A model generated the notes under the pieces. The model had not been told where the DNA came from and ran no database searches. It saw only the letters and a program-made list of their open reading frames with translations. Positions 12,049-36,801 of a stretch of DNA of 58,875 nt are shown here, in pieces. Each line of letters opens with the position of its first letter. The first letter of the stretch is position 1. Origin of the DNA: Anaerolineales bacterium (GTDB taxonomy: Bacteria > Chloroflexota > Anaerolineae > Anaerolineales > UBA11579); assembly GCA_016935415.1 (NCBI GenBank), contig JAFGRA010000318.1, forward strand, positions 1 through 58,875, in the 5' to 3' direction. A program made the position numbers and the translations under genes.

Positions 12049-12067
12049 CGCGGTTGGAGCGTATTTC

Positions 12068-18976: not shown

Positions 18977-18986
18977 GCCCAAAAAC

Positions 18987-19015
18987 TTGCCATCGCAGGG
19001 CGAAGGTGCTATAAT
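18987..19015 (+). promoter_or_regulatory. Sigma-70-type promoter for tRNA-Val
   Basis: TTGCCA (18987-18992), 17-nt spacer, consensus TATAAT (19010-19015), 14 nt before the mature tRNA 5' end. Confidence 0.55.
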
Positions 19016-19029
19016 ATCGCCCTGTCCTA

Positions 19030-19103
<74 letters not shown>

Positions 19104-19156
19104 CTTTTCCACTCTTGCTAAACCATCACATTTATAAATAGGGGAAAGGGGTTGCT

Positions 19157-19704: not shown

Positions 19705-20985
19705 TTACCCCACTAAACTTTCAATCGCACTTACAGCTTTTCCCCCCTCCGTAAATTCTCGCAGCCGCACCCCAAGTTCTTGCGCGGCTGTTTTATATTG
19801 GCTGTTCCCTAAAACATTCTCCACTGCCTCCCGAATGCGTTCTAGCGAGCCGTGGTCAGCTTTCGTCGCCAGGAAGGAATACTTCCCGTAACGCCAACGC
19901 TGCTGGATCAGGCGCATTTCTCCGGCATCCATTGGGCTAAGCACCTGAGCAACCGAGAGGCTTTCCAGTCTGCGCCCGTTAGCTTCCTGCTCGCTGTGGA
20001 AGGGTACCACCACGCTCGGTTTCCCAAACCAGAGCACTTCCATCGTCGTGCCATAACCTCCATGATAGACCACCAGATCGGCCTGCGCGATCACCGCCGG
20101 ACCAGTCACCCAATCCTTGACGATGAAATTCTCCGGCACCGGGGCAAGTTCCTCGGCCGGAATTTTGCCGCTCGTTGAAACGATCACCGTCATCTCGCGG
20201 CCACCTAATGCCTGAAAGACTTTTTCAAAGAAAGTCTTATTACCTACCGCACCTCCGCCAATTGTCACGTAGACCAATGGCCGCGTCCGGTCAAGTGATT
20301 CCAGCCAATTTGCGCCTTCGAGTGAAGCCACCGGGCGCGTCAGCGCCCCCACATATGCAGTATTTTCCAGATCATCGGGCAATGGGTCAAGTAGCGGGAT
20401 GCTGGGGATCAGGGTCAGGTCGCCAAACAGCATTTCTTCTGTCCGTTCGATCTCTGCCAGATCATACTTTCGCAGCACTTTCCCAAACAGTCGGCGCGGG
20501 TCGGGCGGCACGACGTTATCAAGCACATCCCGCCACCATACCAACCCGCTGCCACGCGGGTGCAGGATCGAGCGTACAATCTGCACAACCGGAATACCAG
20601 TCGCCTTACCGAGCATACCGGTCGGCAGCCAAGCGTCGCCAATCAACACCTGGGGCTGTACCTGCTGGATGAAGCGCAGTTGCTCCCGCATTGTCCGCCG
20701 CCACATACGCGGTGAATCTAGACGGTCGCGCACAAGTTGATAATCCATGTTGGTGAAAAACGTATACATGTTATGCCCGGATTCTTTCTCCACCGGGCGG
20801 AACGGGTAGCGCGGTTCAGATGCAGAAAATCCTTTTTTGCGCACACCTTCCAGGTGCTTCCCCGCCAGCACAAAATGGGATTCCCAGCCCGCGGCCTTTA
20901 ACGAATCCGCCAATGCCAGGCAGCGCCCAATATGCCCAAAACCACTTCCCAGGTAGCTGGGAAAGAACAGCGCCTTCTTCTTCAT
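19705..20985 (-). CDS. GT1-family (MGT/UDP-glycosyltransferase-type, GT-B fold) glycosyltransferase
   Basis: N-terminal GSGFGHIGRCLALA and C-terminal donor-binding motif VVYHGGYGTTMEVLWFGKPSVVVPFHSEQEANGRRLE, typical of macrolide/rifamycin-type GT1 enzymes. Start overlaps the upstream stop by 1 nt. Confidence 0.8.
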   Translation of the reverse strand: MKKKALFFPSYLGSGFGHIGRCLALADSLKAAGWESHFVLAGKHLEGVRKKGFSASEPRYPFRPVEKESGHNMYTFFTNMDYQLVRDRLDSPRMWRRTMREQLRFIQQVQPQVLIGDAWLPTGMLGKATGIPVVQIVRSILHPRGSGLVWWRDVLDNVVPPDPRRLFGKVLRKYDLAEIERTEEMLFGDLTLIPSIPLLDPLPDDLENTAYVGALTRPVASLEGANWLESLDRTRPLVYVTIGGGAVGNKTFFEKVFQALGGREMTVIVSTSGKIPAEELAPVPENFIVKDWVTGPAVIAQADLVVYHGGYGTTMEVLWFGKPSVVVPFHSEQEANGRRLESLSVAQVLSPMDAGEMRLIQQRWRYGKYSFLATKADHGSLERIREAVENVLGNSQYKTAAQELGVRLREFTEGGKAVSAIESLVG

Positions 20986-23348
20986 CAGTCTACTTCCTCT
21001 GCTTCCGTCGACTCAGACGACAAGATCACAATCTGGCCGCGGTCACCGTCCAGCCGGATGTAGTCGCCATCTTGGATCAATTGGGTAGCATCACGCACAT
21101 TCACTACTGCTGGAATACCATACTCGCGCGCTACCGTTGCCCCATGCGACAATATCCCGCCAATCTCGGTCACCAGACCGGCGCAGCTCAAAAACAACGG
21201 CGTCCAGCCCGGATCGGTATGCGGGGCTACCAGGATGCTGCCTGGCCGGAAGTGTTGCAATTCACTCAAATCGTGCAGTACGCAAGCCGTCCCCTCGACC
21301 ACACCAGGACTGCACGGGATGCCCAACAAACCGCCCTCAGCTACTTGCTCAACTGAGTCCGCCCGCGAGAGCACCAGTTCCGGGGCGTGCTGCTGACTGT
21401 GCGTGTTGTATTGCGCTTTCCGTTCCGCGATCAATTCAAGCGGTGAACTCGACAGACCGCGGCCTTCAATCAACGCGCGCAATTCGATGCGCTTGAAGAA
21501 GAACACGTCAGCCACTTCTGGGATGCTCTGCTCCGTGGCTAATTTCTCGCCGATCCTGAGATAATGCTGCCGCAACGCCGCAAACCCGGTGATCAACCGG
21601 TACTTGACTTCTTCACGCAGCACAGTATAGGCGCGTAGTTTCGCAACAGCCTGCTCCACCAATTTGCGCTGCCACGATGGCAATCCGGTTGCGGCAAATT
21701 TGCGCGCTGGTTTTGCTCTTGAAGAACTTATCCCACCGGCTTGGATCACACCAATATTATTGCGAATGATCTCCAACGCGTAGGTCGGGTCTTCTCCCCA
21801 GCGCGGCTGTGAAAGCTCAAATTCGCCCGCTGTTCGTCCACCATGAATTTCAAAGAAAGTATCCATTTCAGCTGCAATCCGTGCCCCAGGTTCGCTATCC
21901 AGCAACACCACCCGGATAGCAGGCCATGATTTATCATTTGTAAATAGACCAGCAAGCGTTTCATCTTCCGCCGCGATCTCAGCCACGCGCCAGAGCACTT
22001 TGCCCGGCTCGGAGGTACGCAGCTCTTCACCCGTCGACAAGATATCGGATAACAGCTTCTCGGTATCGGCTGGTGCCCAGGCATACAGCATACGCTCCAA
22101 AACCGCAAACGCGCCAATCGCGTACGTCGTCACCTTTAAATGCAAAGAGAAACACCCCGCCGTCCAACGCAGCAGTTCCGGCACATCTTCATCTAAAGGC
22201 AAAGCGGGGTAAGTATCCACCAGGCGAGAAAGCCGGTCAATCACACCCAACAGATCGCCCCAAAAGATCAATTTCGCCAGCATCACCGGTAGATTGCGCA
22301 CCGGTCGGTAAGGTAACACGGTATCCGGGTAGCGCAGGCCCAGCACTTTGCCAACCACATCCGGCGTCAAGTAAGGCAGGTAACAAAAACGGTGCAGCAT
22401 GCCAATGACCTGCACGTAGACGCGCCCGTAGAAGCGGTTCACGCCCTGACCTTCCGCGACGGAGGCGTCCTCACTCACGTTTTGGGTAAGCGTGGCCTGG
22501 AACACATCCCAGGTCAGCGGCGTGGCGACGTCAGGCAATACCTCACCCACGTTGGCACGCGTCCAAAGCTGCTCAATCTCGATGTGCTTGGGCACGGTAG
22601 TGATCGGCCTGCTTTGCAAAGCATACAAGTTCTCACCGTCCAACGCCCATTCGATATCTTGATCCGGCCCCAACAACTGCTCTACGCCTAACGCCAAGGC
22701 AATCAAGTCCGTGATCTCGCTGTCAGTCAAAATATTAGAATCGGGGATGGATAATGTCTCTGAGTGCCACGCTAATCGCAGCATCTCCGGTTCCTGGCGG
22801 CCGGACAACAATTCTTCGCCCAGTCCAGGCACAGTTTCGACCACCAATACGTTCCGGTCACCGGTGCTCGGATCAGCAGTGAACATCACTCCACTCTTGG
22901 TGGCATTCACCTGGCGCTGCACCAGCAGGGGCAAAGCCAGCGCATCGCCATCCAGACCCTGCCGTCGCAAATATACTTGCAGTTCCTCAGCATCCACTCC
23001 CGCCCAACATTCCTCAATGGCGGCTCTGAGTTGGTCAAAATTGGAAATCGAGAGGATCGTCTTGTACAATCCTGCAAAAGAAGCATCTGGCAAATCTTCG
23101 TTCAGGCCGGACGAACGCACCGCTACCAATTCACCCTGAGGGGCTAGTTCACGATAGGCGCGCACCACTTCTTCCCAGAAACTAGCCTCATCGATCCCTT
23201 CGGGTGCTTGTAGGATACAAAAACCGGGCGGCACCGGCAGCCCAGCCTGGCACAACGCCCCCAAAACAGCAGCCTTATTGCCAACCCGGTCGCCGTCCGT
23301 TAAGGTAACCGCATCCAATGGCAAAATATAACGGGAAGTCTGGCCCAT
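20985..23348 (-). CDS. PEP-utilising-enzyme family phosphotransferase: N-terminal PPDK_N ATP-grasp, long middle domain, C-terminal swivel phosphohistidine domain (rifampicin-phosphotransferase-like architecture)
   Basis: N-terminus VGNKAAVLGALCQAGLPVPPGF. C-terminus ILVAPHTDPGWTPLFLSCAGLVTEIGGILSHGATVAREYGIPAVVNV (mobile His domain). No C-terminal PEP/pyruvate TIM barrel, so it is not a canonical PpsA/PPDK. Confidence 0.75.
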   Translation of the reverse strand: MGQTSRYILPLDAVTLTDGDRVGNKAAVLGALCQAGLPVPPGFCILQAPEGIDEASFWEEVVRAYRELAPQGELVAVRSSGLNEDLPDASFAGLYKTILSISNFDQLRAAIEECWAGVDAEELQVYLRRQGLDGDALALPLLVQRQVNATKSGVMFTADPSTGDRNVLVVETVPGLGEELLSGRQEPEMLRLAWHSETLSIPDSNILTDSEITDLIALALGVEQLLGPDQDIEWALDGENLYALQSRPITTVPKHIEIEQLWTRANVGEVLPDVATPLTWDVFQATLTQNVSEDASVAEGQGVNRFYGRVYVQVIGMLHRFCYLPYLTPDVVGKVLGLRYPDTVLPYRPVRNLPVMLAKLIFWGDLLGVIDRLSRLVDTYPALPLDEDVPELLRWTAGCFSLHLKVTTYAIGAFAVLERMLYAWAPADTEKLLSDILSTGEELRTSEPGKVLWRVAEIAAEDETLAGLFTNDKSWPAIRVVLLDSEPGARIAAEMDTFFEIHGGRTAGEFELSQPRWGEDPTYALEIIRNNIGVIQAGGISSSRAKPARKFAATGLPSWQRKLVEQAVAKLRAYTVLREEVKYRLITGFAALRQHYLRIGEKLATEQSIPEVADVFFFKRIELRALIEGRGLSSSPLELIAERKAQYNTHSQQHAPELVLSRADSVEQVAEGGLLGIPCSPGVVEGTACVLHDLSELQHFRPGSILVAPHTDPGWTPLFLSCAGLVTEIGGILSHGATVAREYGIPAVVNVRDATQLIQDGDYIRLDGDRGQIVILSSESTEAEEVD

Positions 23349-23357
23349 CCGCTAACC

Positions 23358-24782
23358 TCAGCGCACCAACAATGTATAGGCACTGCGCGCCGGGAAAGTA
23401 TATGGAAAGCATCCCGCGCTGTCTAATGTCCCTATATCGGCTGGCTCGCTACCTTCCAGGTTATTCAGAATTTCCACATCCCCGGCCAGCGCGTATTCAG
23501 CTGCCATGCAGAAAGTCACCGGCGCTTTTTGTGGCCCGGCGTTGACTACCCACACAGCCACTTCATCACCAGTTGCAGAGCCTTGCCGAACGGCAAAGAG
23601 TTCCAGACCGCTCTCATTTTCAACGGCTACCAGTTGACCTTCCCCTAAATGATTATATATATTGGCGAACACCCAATAGGTTGGGTATAGATGGTAGGCA
23701 TCACCACGCGCGTTCGTGCCGCGCGAATCGGCAAATAGGCCATGTCCCGACCACCCCAATACGCTCGTGTAGGTATCTGCCAGCCGGAAGTGGATCACGC
23801 CATCGATGCCGCCCGGCCACAGGTAGGCCAACGTTTGCGAAAAATGCAGTGCGGCCGCTTCAGTCGAGAAATCCATGCCACCATCCGGGCTGCCGTGCTC
23901 AGTGCTGGCAAATTCGGTTATCCATACCGGCCCAAAGACGGAAAGCCGATCCAAACGCTGCAACAGGGCATCATTCAAGTTCTCCTGCCCGGCTTCATAA
24001 ACATGGTACGCCCAGCCGTCGCAACAGCCTTCTGGCTGTGCATTGTAGAAAGCCGCCGTCCAATCCGTGCCATGCACTTCGTCCAAACCAAACATACCAA
24101 TCTCCGGCGAGACTGCGTCAAGAGCTGCGCGTGTCTCTATCGCCATACGCAGCAAATCATCCTGGCTGCCCGTGAAAAAGGGCTCTAAATTAGGTTCGTT
24201 TACGAAAGCAAACGAAAGCCGTGCTGGTGCGATGTCGCAATCCTCCACCAGCCAGCGGAACAGTTCACGCACGAATTCGCGGTGTTCGGCGTAATCCACC
24301 GGGGGGAAGGTACCGCCCAACCCAACATAGCCGCCCGGCGTATCGGCATTCCAGCGCGCCGGCAGCCACATATTGATCTGGAAAACCATCTCGGGGAATT
24401 CTTGCCCCAATCGAGTGAACATTTCCTGATAGGTCAGGGTCTTGCCATTCTCCGGGTCGAGCGGGATCGTCAATCCAAAATTGATCTCCGAGAAATTGGG
24501 ATCGGCGTTGTCATTGACCGGTTCAATGTATTCCTGCGTGATCTGCACACGCAATACATTCGCCCCCAATGTCCGGATGCGCTCCACAAACAAATCAGTA
24601 TCCTGATCGACCCAGGCATACTCCACGCCATAATAACTTGGCAAGGATACATCCAACACATCCGCCGAGATATGTACCGTAGTTTCCTCCGCCGTTCCCC
24701 CGGCACACGCAAAGTTCGCCAAGAGCAGCAAAATCACTCCACTAAGCATATAAAAACTTCTAGCTCCCATTACGCGCCTCAT
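23358..24782 (-). CDS. Secreted lipoprotein, clan GH-A (beta/alpha)8 glycoside-hydrolase-like
   Basis: Lipobox LLLLANFAC. Acid/base motif FVNEPN and nucleophile motif VWITEFAS, as in GH5/GH39-type enzymes. Start set at ATG 24782, forming an ATGA overlap with the upstream stop. The track ORF start 24902 lies inside the upstream gene. Confidence 0.65.
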   Translation of the reverse strand: MRRVMGARSFYMLSGVILLLLANFACAGGTAEETTVHISADVLDVSLPSYYGVEYAWVDQDTDLFVERIRTLGANVLRVQITQEYIEPVNDNADPNFSEINFGLTIPLDPENGKTLTYQEMFTRLGQEFPEMVFQINMWLPARWNADTPGGYVGLGGTFPPVDYAEHREFVRELFRWLVEDCDIAPARLSFAFVNEPNLEPFFTGSQDDLLRMAIETRAALDAVSPEIGMFGLDEVHGTDWTAAFYNAQPEGCCDGWAYHVYEAGQENLNDALLQRLDRLSVFGPVWITEFASTEHGSPDGGMDFSTEAAALHFSQTLAYLWPGGIDGVIHFRLADTYTSVLGWSGHGLFADSRGTNARGDAYHLYPTYWVFANIYNHLGEGQLVAVENESGLELFAVRQGSATGDEVAVWVVNAGPQKAPVTFCMAAEYALAGDVEILNNLEGSEPADIGTLDSAGCFPYTFPARSAYTLLVR

Positions 24783-26014
24783 TCCACCGTGTCTTTCTCT
24801 TTCATCAACGCCCGCAACTTCTCCACTATTCCGCGCCGGGTGCGTCCCAGCAGATCGTATCCGGCCAGCAGAAAGATCTGCCACCAGGGTAATTGCGGCC
24901 AATTAGTGCGCAGGCGCATCAGCATTTGTTCCGAAGTCAAGTCCTGCACACGCGGGATCTGGCTATTCCAACTCTCGGCGCTCTGCCCCCAACTCGGCAC
25001 CGCCAGCCATTTTCCCTGCTGGTAGATGCGTTTGTAATCTGCGTCCCAGCCGGATTGGTAATGATTCAAGGTTTTGGTTGAGAAATCATTCTGGCTATGC
25101 GCAATTATCGCTGCTTCACCCGCCAACTTGCCACTCAACAGGGCCGGCTCGCTGCCCATGCAAGACCAGATCGTCGCCAGCCCGGCCGCATCCCCCACGC
25201 GCATCACGCCGTCATTGACCATGCGGTTCGGCGGGCAGATTGGGATCGATCCGGCTTCGTTATGCACCACTTCGGCATCTTTAAACCAGTTTGCATACGG
25301 CTCGAATTCGCGGAAAGCAGCATCATAACGCGCCTTGGCCAGCTTGCCGGGAAAGGCTACATTATCACCCAACGTAGCATAGCCGAAACTCACCAGGCCG
25401 TCATCCAGCGGATAGATCCAACCGCCACCATCACCATAATCATCACTCGGTGCCAGGAAGTAGACTTCTTCCGGATCGGGTACAGGGCAGTTCTTCAACA
25501 ATTGTCCGAAACTATGGCTGTACATGGTCGGCCGTGGCAAATCCAACCAACGGCTGGTCAGCATTGCTTTGCCGGAAGCATCAATGACCAGTGGGGTTTG
25601 GATACGCTCTCCGGAGCCGGTCGACAGTTTCCAACCGCCCTCGCGCCCGCGTTTGATTCCGGTCACATTATCTTTGAGCAGAGAGAGGTTTCCACCAGCT
25701 AAAGCCCGTTCCTGCAGAATTTCACAGGCTTTTCGGTAATGCAGTGCCACTAGGGGGTTCCCATCAAAAGGATGAGAGGACTTATTGCCAAGCGGACTAT
25801 CGAACGTAAAGCGATTGTAAGTACCCTGCACACTCTCCTGTAGACCGAAGCGCTCCACCACATCTACGAAGGTCATTGGCGTAGTCCGGTTGCTGCCCAC
25901 ATGCCTTTTCTCAAATAAGGCCACTGATAGCTCGGAGGCGGTGGAAAGCACCTCGGCTGCCGATAATCCTGCCAACCCTGCGCCAATGATCACAACATCA
26001 TACTGCATATCCAT
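24779..26014 (-). CDS. FAD-dependent oxidoreductase of the geranylgeranyl-reductase type
   Basis: N-terminal dinucleotide fold YDVVIIGAGLAGLSAAE. Internal VIDASG and RVGDAAGLA motifs typical of the GGR/FixC/UbiH superfamily. Sits between prenyl-related genes. Confidence 0.7.
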   Translation of the reverse strand: MDMQYDVVIIGAGLAGLSAAEVLSTASELSVALFEKRHVGSNRTTPMTFVDVVERFGLQESVQGTYNRFTFDSPLGNKSSHPFDGNPLVALHYRKACEILQERALAGGNLSLLKDNVTGIKRGREGGWKLSTGSGERIQTPLVIDASGKAMLTSRWLDLPRPTMYSHSFGQLLKNCPVPDPEEVYFLAPSDDYGDGGGWIYPLDDGLVSFGYATLGDNVAFPGKLAKARYDAAFREFEPYANWFKDAEVVHNEAGSIPICPPNRMVNDGVMRVGDAAGLATIWSCMGSEPALLSGKLAGEAAIIAHSQNDFSTKTLNHYQSGWDADYKRIYQQGKWLAVPSWGQSAESWNSQIPRVQDLTSEQMLMRLRTNWPQLPWWQIFLLAGYDLLGRTRRGIVEKLRALMKEKDTVE

Positions 26015-26049
26015 ACCTATTAAACTAAGCGACTAAAAGAATAACAGCC

Positions 26050-28460: not shown

Positions 28461-28469
28461 AGCGAATCC

Positions 28470-29483: not shown

Positions 29484-29526
29484 TGTTAGTCCAATTCTCT
29501 AATTATTATTCGTTAAAAATACCACA

Positions 29527-31041: not shown

Positions 31042-31161
31042 TCAATCGTCCTCTTGCAAAAACTCTTCGGCGAATTTCCAAATTGGCACAGCAATACAAC
31101 GCGCAAATTGAAACGCTAATAACTGATACTTGTTATCGTCTAGATGCTACGCAAACAGTCA

Positions 31162-32160
31162 TTAATTCTCCCCTCGCTGTTCACTCATCTTCGATGCCAG
31201 CTTGTCAATAATCGGGTCTTCAAGTCCACCCCAGCCGCGGATACCGCTTAACTGCGTTGTGGCTCCGGCCGCAAATCCACGCGTCCACCAAATGATCCCT
31301 AAAACCAGATTGACGATCAAGGATGGATGCCGCATCATGATGCCAGGGTAGACCCGCACCATCGCCACAAAGGCGCGCAAGAATTTGACCGCACCCAATG
31401 CGGGAGACATCACAAAAGACAGGAACGCGCTCCGTCCAATGAAACTCCCCGGAAGGTCAAGCTGCGCCAGTGTACAGCGCGTCACCCGGCCAATGCGGTG
31501 CAGATGAGATAGGCAATCCCGCAGGTTGCTACGCGCGTAGTGGCGCACGAGGATAGCCGGATCGAACCAAACTTCGTGGCCGTACATGCCCAGCAGGTAA
31601 TTGAATAATAAATCTTCCTGGGGATAGTAAGCATTCGGGAAACCCTCATGCTCCAGGAAAAGATCACGCTGGTAAGAAATATTACAAGTTGGGATGTGTA
31701 TTACCGTGCGCGACTCACCGACCGGGGAAAATTCACGAAACTCATATAGATGTGCAGCCCAGGCCACCGCGTCGTCCATATCGGCCGGTTCGATCGCGCC
31801 CCCTACAATCATGTGGCCGTCGGCATGGCGCGCTTCGATATTCTCAATCCAGGCTGGGTCAGCGAGACAATCCGCATCAATGAAAGCCACCACCGGGCTT
31901 TTCGCTTCCTGCACACCGTGATTGCGCGCCGGTCCTGGGAAAATGCGATGGTCATAGACAATCACGCGCACTTCAGGATAATGTACTTTGATGATCTCCA
32001 CCGTGTTATCTTCCGAAGAATCAACGATGATGACCTCTTTTGGCAGCACAGTTTGAGTGTAAAGCGATTCCAGGCAGCCGAGAATCGTCGCTCCACTATT
32101 ATAGGAAGGGATGATTACGCTGATCTCAGCAGTCCGTCTCTCTTCAGCCGCGCTACTCAC
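31162..32160 (-). CDS. GT2-family (GT-A fold) glycosyltransferase
   Basis: ISVIIPSYNSGATILGCLESL, VIIVDSSED, FIDADC (DxD) motifs. 4-nt overlap with the upstream epimerase gene. Confidence 0.85.
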   Translation of the reverse strand: MSSAAEERRTAEISVIIPSYNSGATILGCLESLYTQTVLPKEVIIVDSSEDNTVEIIKVHYPEVRVIVYDHRIFPGPARNHGVQEAKSPVVAFIDADCLADPAWIENIEARHADGHMIVGGAIEPADMDDAVAWAAHLYEFREFSPVGESRTVIHIPTCNISYQRDLFLEHEGFPNAYYPQEDLLFNYLLGMYGHEVWFDPAILVRHYARSNLRDCLSHLHRIGRVTRCTLAQLDLPGSFIGRSAFLSFVMSPALGAVKFLRAFVAMVRVYPGIMMRHPSLIVNLVLGIIWWTRGFAAGATTQLSGIRGWGGLEDPIIDKLASKMSEQRGEN

Positions 32161-33215
32161 GATTCCATCACCTCTGTGCCGGTATAGTTTGTATGCAGAC
32201 TACCGGCAAAGTTCCGCTCTTCGATCAACCAGGTGAGCGTGCGCGCTAGACCGGCTTTTAAATCCACATCGGGATGATATCCTAAGGCGTCTTCTGCTGC
32301 CTTTATGGAAAAACTCCGGTGCTTGCTCACCACGTTCACTTTATCACGCGTAAGAAATGGCGCTTGCGTAGAACGAATAATACCCAACCAATTCCCAAAC
32401 CGGTAAGCTGCTTCTATTATACTCGCGGAAACTGTCGCAAAGGCCAACGGAATGTGAACATCGGGGCTACGCACTTCCAACAAACCAGTAATTGTATCCA
32501 CAATTTCGACCATCGAATTCGAACTCGGGCCACCAATATTGAACGTCTGTCCCGGCGCAGTTGGATGCGTGCTCGCCAATAAAATGCCCTTCACCAGATC
32601 ATCGATATAGGTTAGGTGAATGTGATTATGACCATTGCCCATGTACATGAACTGGCCTACACTTAACATACCAATTAAACGCGTCACCATGCCATCTTCA
32701 TCACCGGGGCCGTAGGTAATCGTCGGGCGCACGATCACAATTTCCATCTGGTCGGCATATTCCCTGACAACTATTTCAGCTTTCGCTTTGGTGCGGTGAT
32801 ACCCGTGTCCACTTTTCTCGGTCTCGGTCGAAAAACGCTCATCGATCCCGGTCTTACCCGGAAATCCGTACACTCCAACCGAACTGATATACACAAACCG
32901 CTTAACTCTGTTCTGCGCGCATTCCAACAACCGGCGCGTGGCTTCCACGTTGACGCGCTCATAAGCTTCCTCAGATGTGCCCCAGCGATTGCGGATCGCG
33001 GCAGTGTGGATGACTAAATCATACCCGGCCAGGAAATCCTCATCCCCGCGCAGATCACTCAAATCCTTCGAGACCACATCCAGGTTTTCAATCTCTGACA
33101 CCGTGTCCAGGCTGGCGGCGCGCACCAACGCGCCGACCTCCCAGCCCATTTCTGCAAATGTGCTGGCTAGCGAACGTCCAATAAACCCCGTTATCCCGGT
33201 TAGGAAAACTCGCAT
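32157..33215 (-). CDS. NAD(P)-dependent sugar epimerase/dehydratase (extended SDR)
   Basis: MRVFLTGITGFIG (GxxGxxG), SSVGVYG, YHRTKAKAE (YxxxK). Confidence 0.85.
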   Translation of the reverse strand: MRVFLTGITGFIGRSLASTFAEMGWEVGALVRAASLDTVSEIENLDVVSKDLSDLRGDEDFLAGYDLVIHTAAIRNRWGTSEEAYERVNVEATRRLLECAQNRVKRFVYISSVGVYGFPGKTGIDERFSTETEKSGHGYHRTKAKAEIVVREYADQMEIVIVRPTITYGPGDEDGMVTRLIGMLSVGQFMYMGNGHNHIHLTYIDDLVKGILLASTHPTAPGQTFNIGGPSSNSMVEIVDTITGLLEVRSPDVHIPLAFATVSASIIEAAYRFGNWLGIIRSTQAPFLTRDKVNVVSKHRSFSIKAAEDALGYHPDVDLKAGLARTLTWLIEERNFAGSLHTNYTGTEVMES

Positions 33216-33223
33216 CCGATCAG

Positions 33224-33502
33224 CTACTCCTCATACTTCATGACCGGGCGATACATACAGCGGCATTCAGCTTTCATCGTACATTCCGGCAAAGGCAGCG
33301 TCGGCGCATCGTCAGGTAAATAAACGGTATCAGGATCGAGTTCTTGGGCTGCCTGACAGCAATCAGGAAACGAGAGCACTCGCACACCGCGGATCGAGCC
33401 ACCGGCGCGGATGCCCAGCTTGTAAGCCGCCAAGGTCTTTTCGGCATAGTTTTCCGGCTTTTCTTGATTGCGTGCGAAATCCTTGAGCCAGTTAAGCGGC
33501 AT
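33224..33502 (-). CDS. Small Cys-rich hypothetical protein (92 aa)
   Basis: ATG at 33502 overlaps the radical SAM stop by 11 nt. Six Cys (DCC, ECTMKAECRC). No recognised family. The longer track ORF start 33553 lies inside the upstream gene. Confidence 0.45.
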   Translation of the reverse strand: MPLNWLKDFARNQEKPENYAEKTLAAYKLGIRAGGSIRGVRVLSFPDCCQAAQELDPDTVYLPDDAPTLPLPECTMKAECRCMYRPVMKYEE

Positions 33503-34637
33503 GATCCACTTCCTTTCGCTTGACGTCCTGCGGCTTGGATTTATCATTCTCACTCAGACTGAGAATATTCGTGCTAACCCGGATAAGGGTGGGCACATCG
33601 TGCAGCATATTGGTATAAGCCGCGTTTGCTAACGGGCAATTGCATTCCTTGGCAGCAATACTGCGGCGCACTTCCTTGATCTTTTCGCCAAACCAGATTG
33701 CCTTGAAGTCGTAGTCGAAGTCACGCAGGTTGCCCAGATCGTCTGCGCGGATACAACACGGCCACACCGTACCATCGGCGTAGATCTGGCAGCTTGCCCA
33801 CCCGGCATAACAGGGGATCACCTGGTCCTCTTCGGCCAGGATGCGCTGCACCAGATTGTAGTACTCCAGGCGGAACGCTTCCGTAATGCGAGACATTCCA
33901 CGGTACGTACGGCTGCGGACATATTCACCAAGGCGGTTCACCGCCTTGGCATACGCCTCTCGGTCAGGGGTGATCGGCAGGCCAATCGTATCCAACTCCA
34001 CGCGTGGTTCAGCGATCTCAGTGATGAACTGATCCACGCCCGTAGTCTCAACGTATTCAATAATCTCATCCAGGTCTTTAACGTTGAAGGTCGATAGCAC
34101 CGTATGGATACCCAGGTTCAAATTGTCATATTTCTCGCGCAGTTCCAGCAAGGCGTTCAGTGTGCGCTCGAACTTCTCGAAGTTGTTGGCTACCCCACGG
34201 ATGAAATCATGCTTTTCGCCTACCCCATCGAGGGATAAATTGATAATGACTTGGGAATCCGGGCAAGACTCGCAAATTGCCGCCACCCGCTCCGGGATTA
34301 CTTTCAAGATACTGTTGGTGGGGATATTGATGATCCCAGGACGACAGTGTTTGTAAGCCGATTGTGCCAGTTCAACGATTTCATTATTAAGGAAAGGCTC
34401 ACCGCCACTGATCGTGAACCAATACGGCGCCCTGCCCAAAGAAGCCAGGGTCTTATCCCACTCTTCCAGGGTCATTTCATTCTCGCGCTTCATCCAGATG
34501 TTGCAGGTCAGGCAGCGCGAATTGCAGCGCGGCGAAGGGGATAGGGTCAGATTGATCGGCACCATTTTCGGCCAGCCGGTCAGCCGGTAAAGCCAGAACA
34601 AAGGAACGCGTGCTAAAACACCAATCATAGATTGCAT
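33492..34637 (-). CDS. Radical SAM enzyme with C-terminal SPASM/twitch-type auxiliary cluster domain
   Basis: CNSRCLTCNIW (CxxxCxxC), GGEPFL SAM-binding motif, C-terminal CYAGWASCQIYADGTVWPCC...CNCP Cys cluster. N-terminal hydrophobic segment. Start set at ATG 34637 (MQSMIG), preceded by a GAAAGG SD, 4 nt after the upstream stop. Confidence 0.8.
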   Translation of the reverse strand: MQSMIGVLARVPLFWLYRLTGWPKMVPINLTLSPSPRCNSRCLTCNIWMKRENEMTLEEWDKTLASLGRAPYWFTISGGEPFLNNEIVELAQSAYKHCRPGIINIPTNSILKVIPERVAAICESCPDSQVIINLSLDGVGEKHDFIRGVANNFEKFERTLNALLELREKYDNLNLGIHTVLSTFNVKDLDEIIEYVETTGVDQFITEIAEPRVELDTIGLPITPDREAYAKAVNRLGEYVRSRTYRGMSRITEAFRLEYYNLVQRILAEEDQVIPCYAGWASCQIYADGTVWPCCIRADDLGNLRDFDYDFKAIWFGEKIKEVRRSIAAKECNCPLANAAYTNMLHDVPTLIRVSTNILSLSENDKSKPQDVKRKEVDHAA

Positions 34638-34641
34638 TACA

Positions 34642-35487
34642 TTAAGCCTTTCTCGCCCATACCGCAGTATGGTGAGCAAATAATCGTTTTATAAACCGTA
34701 TCCGCGTATTCTCAAAATAGGCCAATCGATCCATATCAGCGTGCACTTCGGCGAATTCTGCCCGATCGTAATATGGCAGTCCATCTGCGGGCCATAGGTA
34801 GCGGCTTTCCGGTTTTACTTTGTCGGCTGCCGAACGCATGAACGGAAAAAAGTCGACGATCAATTGGCTGATATCGATAATATCCGGCCACCATGGGCAG
34901 TCCACGTGATCGTTCTGAATATCTTTGAAACCCAAACGCTCAAAATACTTTTCCCAAGAGCGCGCCTGCATTAAATCGATCCGCCCATGATCCCACAGAT
35001 CGTGAGCCACCCGGTGATGCAAGCGATGCATCCAGAAACTGTAATTATGCCGGTTTGGAACGCAGATCAATACAGCTTTGCGAGCAACCCGCCCCATTTC
35101 GGCCAACACCTGGAACGGGTCAGCTTCCCGGGGCATCACGTTGAAATTCCAGACCAGGTCGAAGCTGTTATCAGGGAACGGCAAACAGGCGCCATTAAAT
35201 TCGGTCATGAATTGAACTTCGGCATCCGGCGCGTAGCGCTCCCAGATCGCGCGTGAAAAAGCTGCGCGCTCCGCTCCTCTCAGCAGCACAGTTGCCTTTG
35301 CACCCTTTCGGGCTAAGTTCAGGCTGTTAATGCCATCGATCCCGGCAATGCCGTCGTCCGGCCCTTCCAGCACACTCTCGATTTGCATATCTGCCGTAAT
35401 GCGCAGCAGGAAACGATTAAGCGCCCATCGCTCGTAAGTTGTGCCTAGTCCACGATCGGCCGAATCAAAATACAATTCAGAATCCAT
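34642..35487 (-). CDS. Class I SAM-dependent methyltransferase
   Basis: Rossmann-type VLEGPDDGIAG...ARKGAKATVL and FPDNSFDLVWNFNV, LAEMGRVARKAVLI motifs (Methyltransf_11-like). Start set at ATG 35487 (MDSELYF), downstream of the GT2 stop. Confidence 0.7.
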   Translation of the reverse strand: MDSELYFDSADRGLGTTYERWALNRFLLRITADMQIESVLEGPDDGIAGIDGINSLNLARKGAKATVLLRGAERAAFSRAIWERYAPDAEVQFMTEFNGACLPFPDNSFDLVWNFNVMPREADPFQVLAEMGRVARKAVLICVPNRHNYSFWMHRLHHRVAHDLWDHGRIDLMQARSWEKYFERLGFKDIQNDHVDCPWWPDIIDISQLIVDFFPFMRSAADKVKPESRYLWPADGLPYYDRAEFAEVHADMDRLAYFENTRIRFIKRLFAHHTAVWARKA

Positions 35488-35500
35488 AAAGTATTGCTGC

Positions 35501-36391
35501 CTATATGATCTCAGGAAGCTTCTTTGTAGACTCGGCAATCGCCCAGGAAAACGGGTTTCGGCGCATGATCAAATAATCATACGTTGCTAAGAGTCGCACA
35601 AAAACTTCCAGCACAACGATCCCTGGCCCCCAAATGAAATACCGCCAATCGAACTTGGCGTTTTGCAGATAAAGGCGCACAATCCGCGCCCCATTCATGG
35701 TCGACACCTTGTATCCCAACGTTTCTTTAACGTAGAGATGTCCGGCAAAGATCCGGCGACGCTGCTTGATGAAATCGCGGATGTTTTCCGGGCCGCGATT
35801 GTATACAAGCGCCTCCGGCGCGTATGCCAGACGCATGCCCTGCCCGATGACCAACGGCTCAATGCTGGCCTCATCGACAGCAGTTTCATTGGGGATTTGA
35901 TAGAAAATATTGCGGAAGGCGATCAATTCACCAATCTTCGGGTAGCGCAGGGAAACCAGGTGATGTAGGTCCCACAACAAATTGATTCCGAAGCCAATAA
36001 ATGTATCGTCTAAATTGGTAGGTATAGGATGTCCGCCCACCATACCAACGTTCGGGTCCTCAAAAGGCGACACCAAAGCTTCAATTGTGCCTTCAACCGG
36101 GACGGTATCCGCGCTTTGCATAACCACGATCTTGTGGTCAATATTGCGCATGAACAGATTAACTGCCGACGCCTTACCCTCCCGCTTTTCCTGCACAAGC
36201 AGTTCTACCCGGGAATCTTTCTGGGCAATTTCGCATACAATATCCTCAGTGCCGTCCGTACAACCACTGGCTACGACAATAATCCGATCGATAGCTACTT
36301 TCTCGGTCTTCTGATTTAACAGTCCCTCGAGTAAACGGCCAATATTGGCTGCCTCATTATATGCCATAATACCAATACAACAGTGAAGCAT
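35501..36391 (-). CDS. GT2-family glycosyltransferase, first gene of the operon
   Basis: CIGIMAYNEAANIGRLLEGL, IIVVASGCTDGT, MQSADT (DxD-equivalent). GGAGGAG SD at 36394-36400 (complement). Confidence 0.8.
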   Translation of the reverse strand: MLHCCIGIMAYNEAANIGRLLEGLLNQKTEKVAIDRIIVVASGCTDGTEDIVCEIAQKDSRVELLVQEKREGKASAVNLFMRNIDHKIVVMQSADTVPVEGTIEALVSPFEDPNVGMVGGHPIPTNLDDTFIGFGINLLWDLHHLVSLRYPKIGELIAFRNIFYQIPNETAVDEASIEPLVIGQGMRLAYAPEALVYNRGPENIRDFIKQRRRIFAGHLYVKETLGYKVSTMNGARIVRLYLQNAKFDWRYFIWGPGIVVLEVFVRLLATYDYLIMRRNPFSWAIAESTKKLPEII

Positions 36392-36801
36392 GACTCTCCT
36401 CCGCGATCAAGGATAATTACTTTTTTGCTCTGCCAAGCCCTTTGCTTATTCTGCCTACCGGAAACCAGTTCAAGGAAAAACTCTAATCCCAAAGTTTCCA
36501 TACGTTAATCGACATCATGTTACTACTTAAAAACAGTCAGCATCACAAAAAAATTACCAGACGATTACAAAAACCTTTCCTGCAAATTAACACCTTATTA
36601 CCTATACTATACTAAACTAATCAGACCATTTAAATCTAGGAAATGTTTTATAATTTCTAAGAAATATTATAGTTTGAATCCGGAAAGATCAGGGATTCTA
36701 CTAACCCAATTTTATTTTCTCGGCTTGGAAGCAGACATTTCGAATTGCTTTAACCACTCGACCACAATCCACAGATGACCTTTGCCGGACGGTACTCTTT
36801 T

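Follow-up and report, generated by a model that had tools for sequence, protein, structure and literature searches.

What is made by a bacterial locus that encodes, in one unbroken series, isoprenoid enzymes, glycosyltransferases, a flippase, a radical SAM enzyme and an Rph-like dikinase? The question is posed by positions 19705–36391 of contig JAFGRA010000318.1 from an Anaerolineales bacterium, the whole 58,875 nucleotides of which were analyzed and are referred to here as the window.

A compact and conserved locus of fourteen genes

The interval is filled by 14 ORFs, all on the minus strand, and ORF calling thus confirms the co-directional arrangement given in a preliminary description of this DNA. 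Read 5′ to 3′, they encode a GT2 glycosyltransferase (GT2a), a methyltransferase, a radical SAM/SPASM protein, a small ORF product, an SDR, a second GT2 (GT2b), a GT-C glycosyltransferase, a prenyl diphosphate synthase, a Wzx flippase, a UbiA prenyltransferase, a GGR-fold flavoprotein, a glycoside hydrolase (GH), an Rph-like dikinase, and a GT1. With in-frame starts at 35487 (methyltransferase), 34637 (radical SAM), 33502 (small ORF), and 24782 (GH), all 13 junctions reported earlier are reproduced exactly: gaps of 13 nt (GT2a/methyltransferase) and 4 nt (methyltransferase/radical SAM), an 11-nt overlap (radical SAM/small ORF), an 8-nt gap (small ORF/SDR), a 4-nt overlap (SDR/GT2b), gaps of 120 nt (GT2b/GT-C), 43 nt (GT-C/synthase), and 9 nt (synthase/Wzx), a 4-nt overlap (Wzx/UbiA), a 35-nt gap (UbiA/flavoprotein), an ATGA overlap (flavoprotein/GH), a 9-nt gap (GH/dikinase), and a 1-nt overlap (dikinase/GT1). 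The 120-nt stretch (31042–31161, minus strand, 41% GC) is the sole sizeable gap within the locus. A simple scan of it found no minus-strand promoter-like or terminator-like site, and it is here that the gene order of relatives departs from that of the window.

Upstream of GT2a lies an AT-rich region of 410 nt (36392–36801, minus strand, 37% GC) that is the probable promoter and leader of the locus; it contains, by a scan, the promoter-like site TTTAAA-17-TATAGT at 36634–36606, and it has no Rfam match. The 3′ end meets a convergent gene and a tRNA-Val, and the flanking genes, which encode M23 peptidases, an ABC transporter, an esterase, a LarA-like protein, and an FGGY kinase, are unrelated. 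The locus boundaries are sound, and GC3 within them is homogeneous with the rest of the contig.

Profile-HMM searches support the families first assigned from the sequence alone, with 13 of 13 confirmed by Pfam and all scoring below NCBIfam curated cut-offs. As no protein of the locus attains a curated or equivalog cut-off in NCBIfam, the substrates cannot be read from homology. A literature search found no description of the cluster, which matches no characterized cluster gene for gene; the preliminary description, too, could not match the combination to a characterized pathway.

The genes are not scattered in related genomes. About ten Anaerolineae/Chloroflexota metagenome loci share a near-identical gene order at 40–57% protein identity, and keep the methyltransferase, radical SAM/SPASM, SDR, GT2, Wzx, GT-C, UbiA, GGR-like, GH, Rph-like, and GT1 genes; because the same genes are co-located in these other loci, the arrangement is far beyond chance. 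A locus from Thermodesulfobacteriota (L012) retains nine of them (GT2a, radical SAM, SDR, methyltransferase, GT2b, UbiA, GGR-like, Rph-like, and Wzx) and also has a GT-C-like membrane protein, while L027 is a mini-cluster with a UbiA-Rph-GT1 core. The most faithfully co-conserved genes are UbiA, GGR-like, and Rph-like, including across phyla in L012, and UbiA and the Rph-like gene persist in the minimal core of L027. UbiA, the GGR-like flavoprotein, and the GH each form a small cluster-specific family essentially confined to such loci. Neither the GGPP synthase nor the small Cys-containing protein belongs to the core; both are accessory, and in many relatives RtcB and an unknown gene occupy the position of the synthase. 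None of the cluster's hosts is cultured.

The isoprenoid genes

The synthase gene (28470–29483, minus strand; PF00348, 209 bits) had been described as a polyprenyl diphosphate synthase. The family stands, and its type can be refined: the top NCBIfam matches are short-chain/GGPP synthases, the motifs are DDMED with F at −5 and DDYLN, and members of its 90% cluster carry the JGI name GGPP synthase type I. A short-chain synthase of the GGPP type makes a C20 anchor more likely than a long polyprenyl carrier. The enzyme is missing from most relatives, an observation that counts against an isoprenoid-anchored product. In some relatives, other isoprenoid genes are found near UbiA. In the P0054 locus, which ends with a DXP synthase gene, a prenyl diphosphate synthase gene immediately precedes UbiA; in L030 one that is not orthologous to the window's stands one gene from UbiA; and in both L029 and L019 a canonical GGR gene adjoins UbiA. 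Judging from these neighborhoods, the isoprenoid link is one recruited repeatedly and independently, which reinforces the lipid reading and supports the involvement of an isoprenoid lipid proposed in the preliminary description.

The signature gene of the cluster encodes a UbiA-superfamily intramembrane prenyltransferase (26050–27132, minus strand; PF01040) whose subfamily is cluster-specific, for a search recovered only 84 relatives, each of them metagenomic or chloroflexotal in origin. The family keeps the two Asp-rich motifs, NDWGDRDLD (at 67) and DQLRD (at 194), which correspond to the two-Mg prenyl diphosphate site described in PMC10994848. The closest characterized relative, and the best-scoring one, is chlorophyll synthase (PDB 9sau, 7e-9), an enzyme that uses GGPP or phytyl diphosphate, and ChlG models match 24 of 24 family members.

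The third isoprenoid gene (24779–26014, minus strand; DAO/Lycopene_cycl in Pfam) encodes a divergent FAD flavoprotein. Its assignment as a GGR-type enzyme holds for the fold, as the top seven Foldseek matches of its AF2 model (pLDDT 92) are archaeal GGRs (TMq 0.76–0.77), but not for the canonical cysteine signature, since the protein has no CGG cysteine motif and carries a conserved WSCMG in its place. It scores 82 bits on the NCBIfam model GG-red-SF (cut-off 159), and its family comprises about 37 clusters, followed by a gap to canonical GGR. In L029 the GGR-like flavoprotein co-occurs with a true GGR. This co-occurrence, together with the missing cysteine, makes the reaction uncertain and weighs against the isoprenoid-anchored product as well; the enzyme may catalyze a reaction other than double-bond reduction.

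The same three enzyme families, with a C20-type prenyl donor, make up the archaeal GGPPS/DGGGPS/GGR set and, with ChlG and ChlP, that of chlorophyll synthesis; the flavoprotein fold is nearest to archaeal GGR and the UbiA protein nearest to chlorophyll synthase. The locus differs from both in having no GGGP synthase, G1P dehydrogenase, or tetrapyrrole genes, in a UbiA and a flavoprotein that fall far under the family cut-offs, the latter without the CGG motif, and in that the trio here sits inside a glycosylation and export locus.

Genes for glycosylation, tailoring, phosphorylation, and export

GT2a (35501–36391, minus strand; PF00535, 82 bits), the first gene of the locus, encodes a membrane-anchored enzyme with one C-terminal hydrophobic helix (residues 252–270); its best PDB match is the membrane GT2 6yv7, and it has orthologues in L009, L026, and L012. 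GT2b (31162–32160, minus strand; PF00535, 97 bits) is soluble, matches MftF, EpsD, and AglG in NCBIfam, all below threshold, and is conserved in eight Anaerolineae loci, L012, and L030. The last gene encodes a GT1 of the GT-B fold (19705–20985, minus strand; PF04101 and PF06722, Glyco_tran_28_C/EryCIII-like) of the small-molecule or lipophilic-acceptor type. It scores 104 bits on the NCBIfam MGT subfamily, below the cut-off, its PDB matches are CalG1, EspG2, OleD, YjiC, and sterol glucosyltransferases, and relatives keep it as their terminal gene; L027 has it as well.

Three of the intervening genes encode enzymes that could tailor the sugars. The divergent class I SAM-dependent methyltransferase (34642–35487, minus strand) matches Methyltransf_11 weakly (1e-6), has no NCBIfam match, and is conserved in L001, L004, L007, L009, L026, L012, and L030. 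The radical SAM protein with a SPASM/twitch-type auxiliary cluster domain (33492–34637, minus strand; PF04055 and PF13186) carries the motif CNSRCLTC at residue 38. Its best NCBIfam model is 'twitch domain radical SAM' (83 bits, cut-off 170), its PDB matches, which include SkfB and the sugar-acting BlsE, are weak throughout, and orthologues at 47–71% identity occur in seven loci and L012. The extended SDR (32157–33215, minus strand; PF01370, 131 bits), an NAD-dependent epimerase/dehydratase/reductase, has the motifs TGxxGxxG and YHRTK; its best NCBIfam matches, HpnA-like and OleD-like, are below cut-off, its PDB matches include the UDP-GlcA 4-epimerases 6zl6 and MoeE5, and it is retained wherever a locus extends far enough to include it.

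Between the radical SAM and SDR genes lies an accessory ORF for a 92-aa Cys-containing protein without a Pfam family (33224–33502, minus strand). It is a real gene: it is 53% identical to L026:3471–3767 (E 3e-36), which holds the same radical SAM/small/SDR position, a search of 1.84 billion representative proteins yields 65 relatives, and its GC3 of 0.60 is like that of its neighbors. In P0098 the domain is fused N-terminally to an Epimerase-family SDR, and the family shows tandem duplications and a conserved, well-folded-looking N-terminal half, which together argue that it is a partner domain of the SDR and not a precursor peptide.

The Rph/PigC-like ATP-dependent dikinase (20985–23348, minus strand; PF01326 and PF00391) consists of an ATP-grasp domain, a middle domain, and a swivel phospho-histidine domain, with the motif GGILSHGATVAR at residue 730, and lacks the PEP/pyruvate TIM-barrel domain; orthologues also have PF27448 (Rph_4th). 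Its NCBIfam matches (PEP-synthase-like, Rph, RedH, and PigC; 286–382 bits) are all below cut-off, and it is conserved in every locus that reaches that far, including L012 and L027. A single NCBIfam model of an 854-aa fusion protein, NF004520, matches both the SDR and the dikinase, and we take this to be a model of Rv2047c. The mycobacterial Rv2047c has an SDR plus PEP-utilizing architecture; in the published proposal, it reduces a lipid and then phosphorylates it ahead of GT2 mannosylation (PMC2443190, PMC7058343). The pks12-Rv2047c-ppm1 genes, proposed to make mannosyl-beta-1-phosphomycoketide (PMC2443190, PMC7058343), thus resemble the locus in linking an extended SDR to a PEP-utilizing swivel-His module, with a proposed role in providing a lipid phosphate that is then glycosylated by a GT2. 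They differ in that their lipid is of polyketide and not of isoprenoid type, what Rv2047c does is still a proposal, and the SDR and phosphotransfer parts fused there are separate proteins encoded 9 kb apart here.

Three further proteins point to the membrane and beyond. The GT-C glycosyltransferase (29527–31041, minus strand; PF13231, with a sub-threshold NCBIfam match to Agl23) is PMT_2/ArnT-like, has at least five strongly hydrophobic helices, and has a predicted extracytoplasmic site of action. TM1 is followed by an FDEG motif, as in GT-Cs of relatives, and an [F/I/V]DE loop motif is common to all the GT-Cs. The L009 orthologue shares 47% identity with it, and in other loci divergent PMT_2 genes, one to three in number, stand next to Wzx and UbiA. 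The Wzx-like flippase of the MOP superfamily (27129–28460, minus strand; PF01943 and PF13440) has at least nine hydrophobic helices, and the end of its gene shares 4 nt with the UbiA start. Wzx is kept next to UbiA and GT-C in all Anaerolineae loci, the three genes form an uninterrupted run in nearly all loci, and L012 too has a Wzx gene. The clan GH-A glycoside hydrolase (23358–24782, minus strand), GH30/GH39-like and PslG-like, matches PF11790 (Glyco_hydro_cc) weakly. Its AF2 model (pLDDT 86) combines a TIM barrel with a beta-sandwich, and Foldseek returns GH30/GH39 enzymes and PslG (TMq 0.64, sequence identity ~14%). The NEP at 195 and ITEF at 288 are conserved with the catalytic-motif glutamates intact, an N-terminal hydrophobic segment, which serves as a predicted export signal, is followed by a Cys, so that the secreted enzyme is possibly a lipoprotein, and its family counts 37 clusters, all at least 47% identical.

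A candidate pathway and its alternatives

Given the gene families and catalytic motifs, the topology of the membrane and secreted proteins, the close linkage, and the conservation of the genes as a set, we consider it an even bet that a single dedicated pathway produces a tailored glycolipid or lipid-linked glycan with an isoprenoid anchor and exports it as part of the cell envelope. The preliminary description had arrived at much the same interpretation, and the enzyme families, the compact co-directional locus, and the co-conservation on which it drew have all held.

The main rival, which we regard as unlikely though worth serious consideration, is a three-component donor system in which UbiA would transfer a phospho-sugar onto prenyl phosphate, like DPPR synthase or Citrobacter ORF15. 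The synthase, GGR-fold flavoprotein, and dikinase would supply a dedicated prenyl phosphate, short and partly saturated, the SDR, radical SAM enzyme, and methyltransferase would convert the lipid-linked sugar, Wzx would flip it, and the GT-Cs would decorate a surface protein or a glycan assembled by the GT2 and GT1 enzymes. Known pentofuranosylation systems (Citrobacter youngae ORF15/14/12/13 and the mycobacterial Rv3806c-DprE1/E2-GT-C arabinan pathway; PMC11127046, PMC10994848) likewise encode together a UbiA membrane enzyme, a MOP/MATE flippase, one or more GT-Cs, and a cytoplasmic SDR, the SDR epimerase being an optional component (PMC11127046), and make a lipid-linked unit inside that is flipped and used outside. 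The near-constant Wzx, GT-C, and UbiA contiguity with its stop/start overlap and the ever-present SDR fit this scheme, the Rv2047c analogy would give the dikinase a role in making a lipid phosphate for a GT2, and the DPPR-synthase model is matched, weakly, by 7 of 24 UbiA family members. In L011, L013, L014, and L019, more distant UbiA relatives also come immediately after ~600-aa proteins that end in a TPR domain. The N-terminal ~430 residues of these proteins are without a Pfam match. UbiA being beside, and translationally coupled to, flippase and GT-C genes is characteristic of UbiA-type systems that supply lipid-phospho-sugar donors (PMC11127046), and fits the donor scheme at least as well as an isoprenoid anchor. 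Against it, all 24 UbiA members score higher on chlorophyll synthase than on DPPR synthase, their profile does not recover Rv3806c (8j8j) even at E ≤ 10, and the family keeps the second Asp-rich motif, which holds the second Mg in canonical prenyl diphosphate-using UbiAs and is replaced by a Lys/Arg cluster in Rv3806c (PMC10994848). The locus UbiA is not a DPPR/PPPR synthase orthologue and is closer to ChlG. Pfam finds no HAD/PAP2 phosphoribose phosphatase and no DprE1-type oxidase in the locus, which is no appendage of an O-antigen locus, and which adds the GGPP synthase, GGR-fold flavoprotein, dikinase, radical SAM enzyme, GT1, two GT2s, and GH.

It is improbable that the locus instead makes a specialized metabolite, either a secreted glycosylated terpenoid or a phosphoglycolipid resembling moenomycin, whose role would be ecological (e.g. 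antibiotic) and not that of a structural part of the envelope. The GT1 is closest to natural-product enzymes (CalG1, EspG2, OleD), Rph, PigC, and RedH are relatives of the dikinase, clusters of this kind typically encode tailoring by radical SAM enzymes and methyltransferases, and accessory genes vary among the loci. In moenomycin, too, an isoprenoid lipid and a tailored oligosaccharide are connected through a small phosphorylated head group, and its synthesis involves an NAD-dependent sugar epimerase (MoeE5, a PDB match of the SDR), methylation, and several GTs. Its pathway is not known to include a Wzx, GT-C, GH, or Rph-like enzyme, however, and its prenyl-attaching enzyme is a soluble GGGPS-like protein and not a UbiA. 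Envelope glycan assembly is what Wzx, the GT-C genes (one to three per locus), and a secreted PslG-like hydrolase characteristically mark, the same order at ~50% identity across many Anaerolineae lineages and the homogeneous GC3 look like a vertically inherited housekeeping trait, and the locus has no antibiotic-cluster-type regulator, resistance gene, or efflux pump.

Very unlikely, in our view, is an ordinary Wzx/Wzy exopolysaccharide or O-antigen-like locus on the general undecaprenyl carrier, with the isoprenoid, dikinase, and radical SAM genes as unrelated neighbors. Wzx, several GTs, an SDR, a methyltransferase, and a GH are indeed a common polysaccharide-locus set, but Pfam finds no initiating transferase (PF02397 or PF00953), Wzy polymerase, or Wzz chain-length regulator in the locus, the supposed neighbors UbiA, GGR-like, and Rph-like are its most faithfully co-conserved genes, and the junctions between 'lipid' and 'sugar' genes are overlaps or gaps of at most 35 nt. 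The Psl locus of Pseudomonas aeruginosa similarly includes a secreted clan GH-A hydrolase, PslG, with a TIM barrel and beta-sandwich; its initiating transferase, polymerase, and co-polymerase are absent here, and identity to PslG is ~14%. Archaeal Agl N-glycosylation loci resemble the locus in their GT2s (AglJ/G), SAM methyltransferase (AglP), Wzx-like flippase (AglR), and GT-C-like proteins (AglS/Agl23). Its own matches to AglJ and AglG (GT2s) and Agl23 (GT-C) are all far under the cut-offs, and it has no AglB/STT3 oligosaccharyltransferase and no cis-prenyltransferase. Archaeal lipid carriers are partly saturated by GGR-family enzymes.

The idea that the radical SAM/SPASM enzyme cross-links the small Cys-rich protein as a RiPP, which the rest of the locus decorates or exports, can be set aside as exceedingly improbable, and the small ORF was rejected as a precursor: the two genes overlap by 11 nt and SkfB, a weak PDB match, is a peptide maturase, but the small ORF is absent from nearly all related loci that keep the radical SAM gene, its family is fused to an SDR and tandemly duplicated with a conserved N-terminal half, and the enzyme falls far under every peptide-maturase cut-off in NCBIfam.

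For the envelope lipid pathway that we favor, the gene set suggests a route from the cytoplasm outward. The GGPP-type synthase would provide a C20 prenyl diphosphate, which in relatives would come from elsewhere in the genome, and the ChlG-like UbiA would move the C20 chain to a hydroxyl or carboxyl of a polar head at the cytoplasmic face, taking the place of the missing initiating phosphoglycosyltransferase. The chain could then be saturated or otherwise modified by the flavoprotein, and a hydroxyl of the lipid or of the first sugar phosphorylated by the dikinase. Sugars would be added by the GT1, whose type suits lipophilic acceptors, and the two GT2s, and tailored by the SDR, with the small Cys-protein as its partner, the radical SAM enzyme, and the methyltransferase. 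The Wzx-type flippase would move the product outward, where the GT-C may extend it or transfer it to its final acceptor and the secreted PslG-like hydrolase may trim or release it.

Organization and boundaries of the locus

The ORF coordinates bear out the preliminary description of this locus as 14 co-directional minus-strand genes at 19705–36391, and all 13 of the junctions quoted there are reproduced exactly when the starts of the methyltransferase (MT), radical SAM/SPASM enzyme (rSAM), small ORF and glycoside hydrolase (GH) are set at 35487, 34637, 33502 and 24782, respectively. Eleven of the 13 junctions are overlaps or gaps of at most 35 nt, and the remaining two are gaps of 43 nt and 120 nt (31042–31161). 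No competing long ORF with better support is found on the opposite strand of 19705–36391. A scan of the 120-nt gap for an internal promoter was empty, which is weak evidence given a consensus that is not tuned to Chloroflexota.

On its downstream side the locus is bounded by a convergent ORF and a tRNA-Val gene (anticodon CAC; 19030–19104, plus strand), the latter 600 nt past the 3′ end of the locus, and on its upstream side by a 410-nt stretch of 37% GC. A riboswitch or leader RNA in this upstream region was rejected, as there is no Rfam match anywhere in the locus. The flanking genes, which encode M23 peptidases, an ABC transporter, an esterase, a LarA-like protein, an FGGY kinase, an amylase and a LacI protein, are unrelated to the locus. 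The GC3 of the fourteen genes is even (0.56–0.68) and therefore does not suggest a recent insertion; with no integrase among the annotated neighbours of the tRNA-Val gene, a genomic island or recent transfer is unsupported. The window is a complete NCBI contig of 58,875 bp, and an identical segment is present in a Logan assembly of SRR13394437.

Upstream of the locus, at a distance of 410 nt, the same strand carries a 66-aa ORF (36802–37002, minus) with a CxxC...CPxH pattern and no family match. It is preceded, at 37056–37028, by the best sigma-70-like match of the region, TTGACA-17-TATACT (11/12 against a consensus not tuned to Chloroflexota). Tandem paralogous LysM + M23 peptidase genes of near-identical architecture occupy 12020–13282 and 13332–14573 on the plus strand. 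About 13 kb from the locus, a second GT-C gene, of the TMEM260-like protein O-mannosyltransferase family (5291–6814, minus), adjoins a gene for a DUF4012 protein (3295–5262), and this pair is followed on the same strand by a two-component system (656–3144); in related loci, a TMEM260_N/PMT_2 GT-C heads the locus itself.

Sugar-side enzymes, the dikinase and the small ORF

Pfam and NCBIfam confirm every protein family named in the preliminary description. All 14 proteins stay short of the curated NCBIfam cut-offs, so that each is placed only at the level of its family. The first glycosyltransferase, GT2a, has a C-terminal membrane helix and the membrane GT2 6yv7 as its best PDB match, and GT1, at the other end of the locus, has its closest matches among natural-product and sterol glycosyltransferases, enzymes that use lipophilic acceptors. 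The GT-C is polytopic, matches PF13231 at 31.5 bits (cut-off 26.1), and carries an FDEG motif at residue 37, right behind TM1, with equivalent motifs in three GT-Cs of related loci. The Wzx flippase, a protein with at least nine hydrophobic helices, falls in PF01943 and PF13440.

The GH returned nothing in a PDB sequence search, and a fold search was needed. Its AF2 model (pLDDT 86) consists of a TIM barrel and a beta-sandwich, for which Foldseek returns GH30 and GH39 enzymes and PslG (TMq 0.60–0.67). The clan GH-A catalytic Glu residues are intact in its NEP (acid/base) and TEF (nucleophile) motifs; across 25 family sequences, N191 and E192 of the former are invariant and E286 of the latter is at least 90% conserved. 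Motifs and modelled fold thus place the enzyme in clan GH-A, with no CAZy family assigned. A hydrophobic segment followed by a Cys is found at its N-terminus, and lipoprotein status is no more than plausible because the lipobox in the window breaks the PROSITE rule at position −3.

The short-chain dehydrogenase/reductase (SDR) has the TGxxGxxG and YxxxK motifs, HpnA and OleD as its best-scoring NCBIfam models, and UDP-GlcA 4-epimerases, including MoeE5, as its best PDB matches. The dikinase pairs an ATP-grasp domain (PF01326, PPDK_N) with a PF00391 swivel domain bearing the catalytic-His motif GGILSHGATVAR. This is the architecture of Rph, with a middle domain between the two and without the PEP/pyruvate TIM barrel, and the orthologues additionally carry PF27448 (Rph_4th). 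Its scores of 338, 286 and 329 against the Rph, PigC and RedH equivalog models fall below the respective cut-offs of 999, 1300 and 1350, so its substrate cannot be read from them. The SDR and the dikinase match the N-terminal and C-terminal parts, respectively, of one model, NF004520 (854 aa, 'sugar epimerase family protein'), which we take to correspond to mycobacterial Rv2047c. Rv2047c, encoded in the pks12 operon, has an SDR + PEP-utilising architecture and is proposed, unproven, to carry out reductive mycoketide release and phosphorylation before mannosylation by the GT2 Ppm1 (PMC2443190, PMC7058343). By this analogy, the SDR and the Rph-like enzyme of the locus would share one lipid-linked intermediate as their substrate, and the dikinase would make a phosphate ester that is glycosylated afterwards.

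The rSAM has a CNSRCLTC motif and a SPASM/twitch-like Cys set, and its PDB sequence matches, SkfB and the sugar-acting decarboxylase BlsE, are too weak to assign a function. The neighbouring small ORF is a real gene, as a 53% identical ORF (E 3e-36) sits at the same rSAM/SDR position in a related metagenome locus, L026, and HMMER, run in full over 1.84 billion representative proteins, returns 65 relatives. An rSAM next to a small Cys-rich ORF could be read as a RiPP system with the ORF as its precursor. This reading was rejected: among the related loci the small gene occurs only in L026 and is missing from seven that keep the rSAM, and in one relative, P0098, its domain is fused to the N-terminus of an Epimerase-family SDR. 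As most related loci have the rSAM but no small gene, the product of the latter fits an accessory partner of the SDR better than a precursor peptide. One relative, P0085, is a tandem duplication of the domain, and the C-terminal Cys motif (CxxC ... P.LP.P.C....CRC.Y.P) also ends 320–360-aa proteins with a SAP-like motif (P0132, P0139, P0141 and P0147); it looks like a widespread, unnamed four-Cys module.

Isoprenoid genes and the UbiA reaction

The prenyl diphosphate synthase is of the short-chain type, with a first Asp-rich motif of DDMED preceded by Phe at −5 and a second of DDYLN. Phe at this position restricts the product of such synthases to C20 or shorter. Short-chain/GGPP synthases head the NCBIfam matches of the enzyme, and the proteins that cluster with it at 90% identity bear the name GGPP synthase type I.

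The flavoprotein scores 82 bits against the geranylgeranyl reductase (GGR) family TIGR02032 (cut-off 159), and its PDB sequence matches (a halogenase, FixC and a GGR) are too weak and mixed to assign a function. For its AF2 model (pLDDT 92), the top seven PDB fold matches are archaeal GGRs (TMq 0.76–0.77), ahead of FixC and halogenases, and the motifs GxGxxG, IDASG, GDAAG and GGGWxYP, FAD-binding motifs among them, are present. The conserved Cys of the (P)CGG motif is a defining feature of GGRs. Across the flavoprotein family the CGG motif near residue 47 is replaced by GSNxxTP, and a conserved WSCMG is present. Canonical GGRs that keep the CGG motif are found in two related loci, L019 and L029, and in L029 the canonical and GGR-like enzymes are both present, flanking UbiA on either side. 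The model thus gives the protein a GGR fold, and its reaction may differ from that of a GGR. In the archaeal ether-lipid pathway, GGPP synthase, DGGGP synthase and GGR are accompanied by GGGP synthase and G1P dehydrogenase; neither of these was found in the locus or in the scanned ORFs of the window, which cover most of its large ORFs, and only two of 24 UbiA family members match the DGGGP synthase model, weakly.

The UbiA protein matches PF01040 at 51 bits (cut-off 34) and has at least six strongly hydrophobic helices. Its Asp-rich motifs, NDxxDxxxD at 67–75 and DxxxD at 194–198, are conserved in 24 sequences, with D194 invariant and D198 present in at least 90%. Against chlorophyll/bacteriochlorophyll synthase models it scores 34 bits (cut-off 313) and 33 bits (cut-off 212), and the window contains no chlorophyll genes. 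UbiA is not a ChlG/BchG member; ChlG is its nearest characterised relative.

Two reactions can be considered for this enzyme. In the first, which we rank first and give about an even chance, UbiA would move the prenyl chain of a C20 diphosphate to a polar acceptor. In the second, which we rank second and consider unlikely, it would move a phospho-sugar onto a prenyl phosphate, the reaction that DPPR/PPPR synthases carry out when mycobacteria make arabinan and in three-component pentofuranosylation systems (Kelly et al. 2024, PMC11127046). The genomic context favours phospho-sugar transfer. Three-component systems likewise pair a UbiA enzyme with a MOP/MATE flippase, a GT-C and an SDR epimerase (PMC11127046); the window has the order GT-C, prenyl diphosphate synthase, Wzx and UbiA, with the Wzx stop overlapping the UbiA start, and in the relatives Wzx, GT-C and UbiA are contiguous, often with a further GT-C. 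The protein itself, however, does not belong to the DPPR/PPPR synthase family. All 24 members match the ChlG model, whereas the DPPR-type models NF008977 and NF008978 are matched by only seven and three of them (E ≥ 5e-5). A PDB search with the family profile finds chlorophyll synthase only, with which the family shares the motifs NDxxDRxxD and YSxxPLxLK, and does not find the mycobacterial DPPR synthase Rv3806c (8j8j) even at E ≤ 10. The second Asp-rich motif, which binds the second Mg in canonical prenyl-diphosphate-using UbiA enzymes, is kept, whereas Rv3806c uses a Lys/Arg cluster (Gao et al. 2024, PMC10994848). DprE1 is absent, as is a phosphoribose 5-phosphatase (HAD PRP domain or Rv3807c-type): HAD and PAP2 domains are missing from all 14 proteins. 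The ChlG matches, the second Asp-rich motif and the lack of a phosphatase and DprE1 are the reasons for ranking prenyl transfer above phospho-sugar transfer. Membership of the DPA pathway is ruled out at the level of orthology by the DPPR models and the PDB profile, and we retain that pathway as a mechanistic rival.

Conservation among relatives and the predicted product

Of the large proteins, homology searches covered UbiA, the GGR-like protein and GH, and related loci were gathered through the UbiA relatives and a scan of one genome per GTDB species. Among 5.8 billion clusters, UbiA finds just 84 relatives, which are all metagenomic and, where named, from Chloroflexi or Anaerolineales; the families of the GGR-like and GH proteins are likewise small and tight, at about 37 clusters apiece, and a wide gap separates them from anything else. 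All 21 matches of the genome scan are MAGs, and no cultured host is therefore known. About 10 loci from Anaerolineae/Chloroflexota, at 40–57% identity, share the order MT-rSAM-GT2-(GT2)-SDR-(unknown-RtcB)-Wzx-GT-C-UbiA-(GT-C)-GGR-like-GH-Rph-like-GT1. Given these ordered relatives and the cluster-specific UbiA, GGR-like and GH families, the genes are not scattered, and the co-conservation expected of a dedicated system holds.

Beyond this group, the Thermodesulfobacteriota locus L012 keeps GT2a, rSAM, SDR, MT, GT2b, UbiA, the GGR-like protein, the Rph-like enzyme and Wzx, and has in addition a GT-C-like membrane protein in which the motif reads VDEF, a further two flavoproteins and a B12-binding radical SAM enzyme. 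The two extra flavoproteins are amine-oxidase/CrtI-like and lie between UbiA and the GGR-like gene; the B12-binding radical SAM gene follows the Rph-like gene there (17799–19268), as it does in the P0054 locus (JGI 3300075153), which was read as a gene list. Another locus, L027, has a UbiA-Rph-unknown-GT1 core adjoining a polysaccharide pyruvyl transferase gene, and in L019 (Desulfatiglandales), where UbiA is 33% identical, the genes that accompany it are those for a canonical GGR, an rSAM and two GT2s. The Bacteroidota UbiAs (27–33% identical) sit among genes for SPASM-rSAM, GDSL, GT4, epimerase and UDP-glucose dehydrogenase proteins; these are not ebo genes, and an Ebo-type operon was rejected for them. 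Distant UbiA members are directly preceded by a protein of about 600 aa with an unannotated N-terminal part of about 430 residues and C-terminal TPR repeats (L011, 3081–4916; L013, 8170–9981; L014, 8209–9981; L019, 6811–8835), which could be a TPR-bearing, GT-C-like enzyme.

The GGPP synthase and the small ORF of the window are accessory genes. At the GT-C/synthase position, many relatives instead carry a protein of about 375 aa without a Pfam family and, after it, a homologue of RtcB, of the RNA 3′-phosphate ligase family (L001, 4530–7084; L026, 5923–8555; L029, 3130–5726; also L003, L006 and L007). Neither is found anywhere in the window. An RtcB is unexpected where a glycolipid or glycan is made; it might serve there to couple a phosphate monoester with a hydroxyl. 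In two distant loci, the Rph-like gene is separated from GT1 by the gene for a second conserved protein, helix-rich and without a Pfam match (L009, 14834–16261, 475 aa; L027, 5567–6697, 376 aa), which is absent from the window. A prenyl diphosphate synthase gene is directly upstream of UbiA in the P0054 locus, which a DXP synthase gene closes, and another lies one gene from UbiA in L030, where it is of the DDxxxxD type and not orthologous to that of the window. Together with the canonical GGRs of L029 and L019, they show that isoprenoid genes were recruited repeatedly, and nothing else argues as strongly for a pathway that uses up a prenyl diphosphate.

In bacteria, the priming of surface glycans is nearly always the work of a phosphoglycosyltransferase that acts on undecaprenyl phosphate. 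No initiating enzyme of this kind (WbaP/PF02397 or WecA/PF00953) is found among the 14 proteins or in the Pfam lists of the relatives, and the locus contains no Pfam family for a Wzy polymerase or a Wzz/PCP chain-length regulator, the GT-C being the only other polytopic candidate; it is therefore not of the standard Wzx/Wzy type. In place of the phosphoglycosyltransferase, the locus has a cluster-specific UbiA, genes for C20 supply and reduction, a swivel-His dikinase and a radical SAM enzyme. From comparative genomics, the reading with the best support is a dedicated pathway that would make a glycolipid or lipid-linked glycan on a C20 isoprenoid anchor, with phosphorylation and other tailoring; this supports, with refinements, the modified polyprenyl-linked glycoconjugate or glycolipid of the preliminary description. 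Wzx would flip the isoprenoid-anchored product outward, and the GT-C and the PslG-like hydrolase would complete it outside the cell. Candidates for the final acceptor are the lipid itself, a glycan and a surface protein; the FG-GAP proteins, whose genes lie downstream in relatives, would be an example of the last and may be acceptors or partners. These large, adhesin-like FG-GAP repeat proteins follow GT1 directly in four related loci (L001, from 19584; L003, 18036–20000; L026, 17951–19732; L029, from 19499), and none is adjacent in the window.

We found no paper describing this gene combination, which is conserved and brings known enzyme families together in what appears to be a novel form of lipid-linked glycoconjugate assembly. 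A bolder reading, which we hold only tentatively and think doubtful, is an unrecognised class of envelope molecule in Chloroflexota and a few other phyla: a glycan or phosphoglycan on an archaeal-style saturated C20 isoprenoid, attached by a UbiA of a new subfamily in place of the universal initiating phosphoglycosyltransferase, with a phosphate from the Rph-like enzyme and, in many relatives, perhaps a phosphodiester made by RtcB. Such a class would mean that bacteria can prime and anchor their surface glycans in a way not recognised before, and that isoprenoid glycolipid biomarkers now ascribed to archaea can have a bacterial source. The UbiA-Rph-GT1 core of L027 is a small gene set, amenable to expression in another host. 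If the predicted pathway is correct, it would provide functions for three orphan protein families and for an Rph-like kinase outside antibiotic resistance, and would bear on how sedimentary isoprenoid glycolipids are read. The gene set is conserved in many uncultured Anaerolineae and recurs in other phyla; a correct prediction would also mean that envelope glycoconjugates can be primed or anchored by a novel chemistry, and would bear on the poorly understood envelope of the Chloroflexota.
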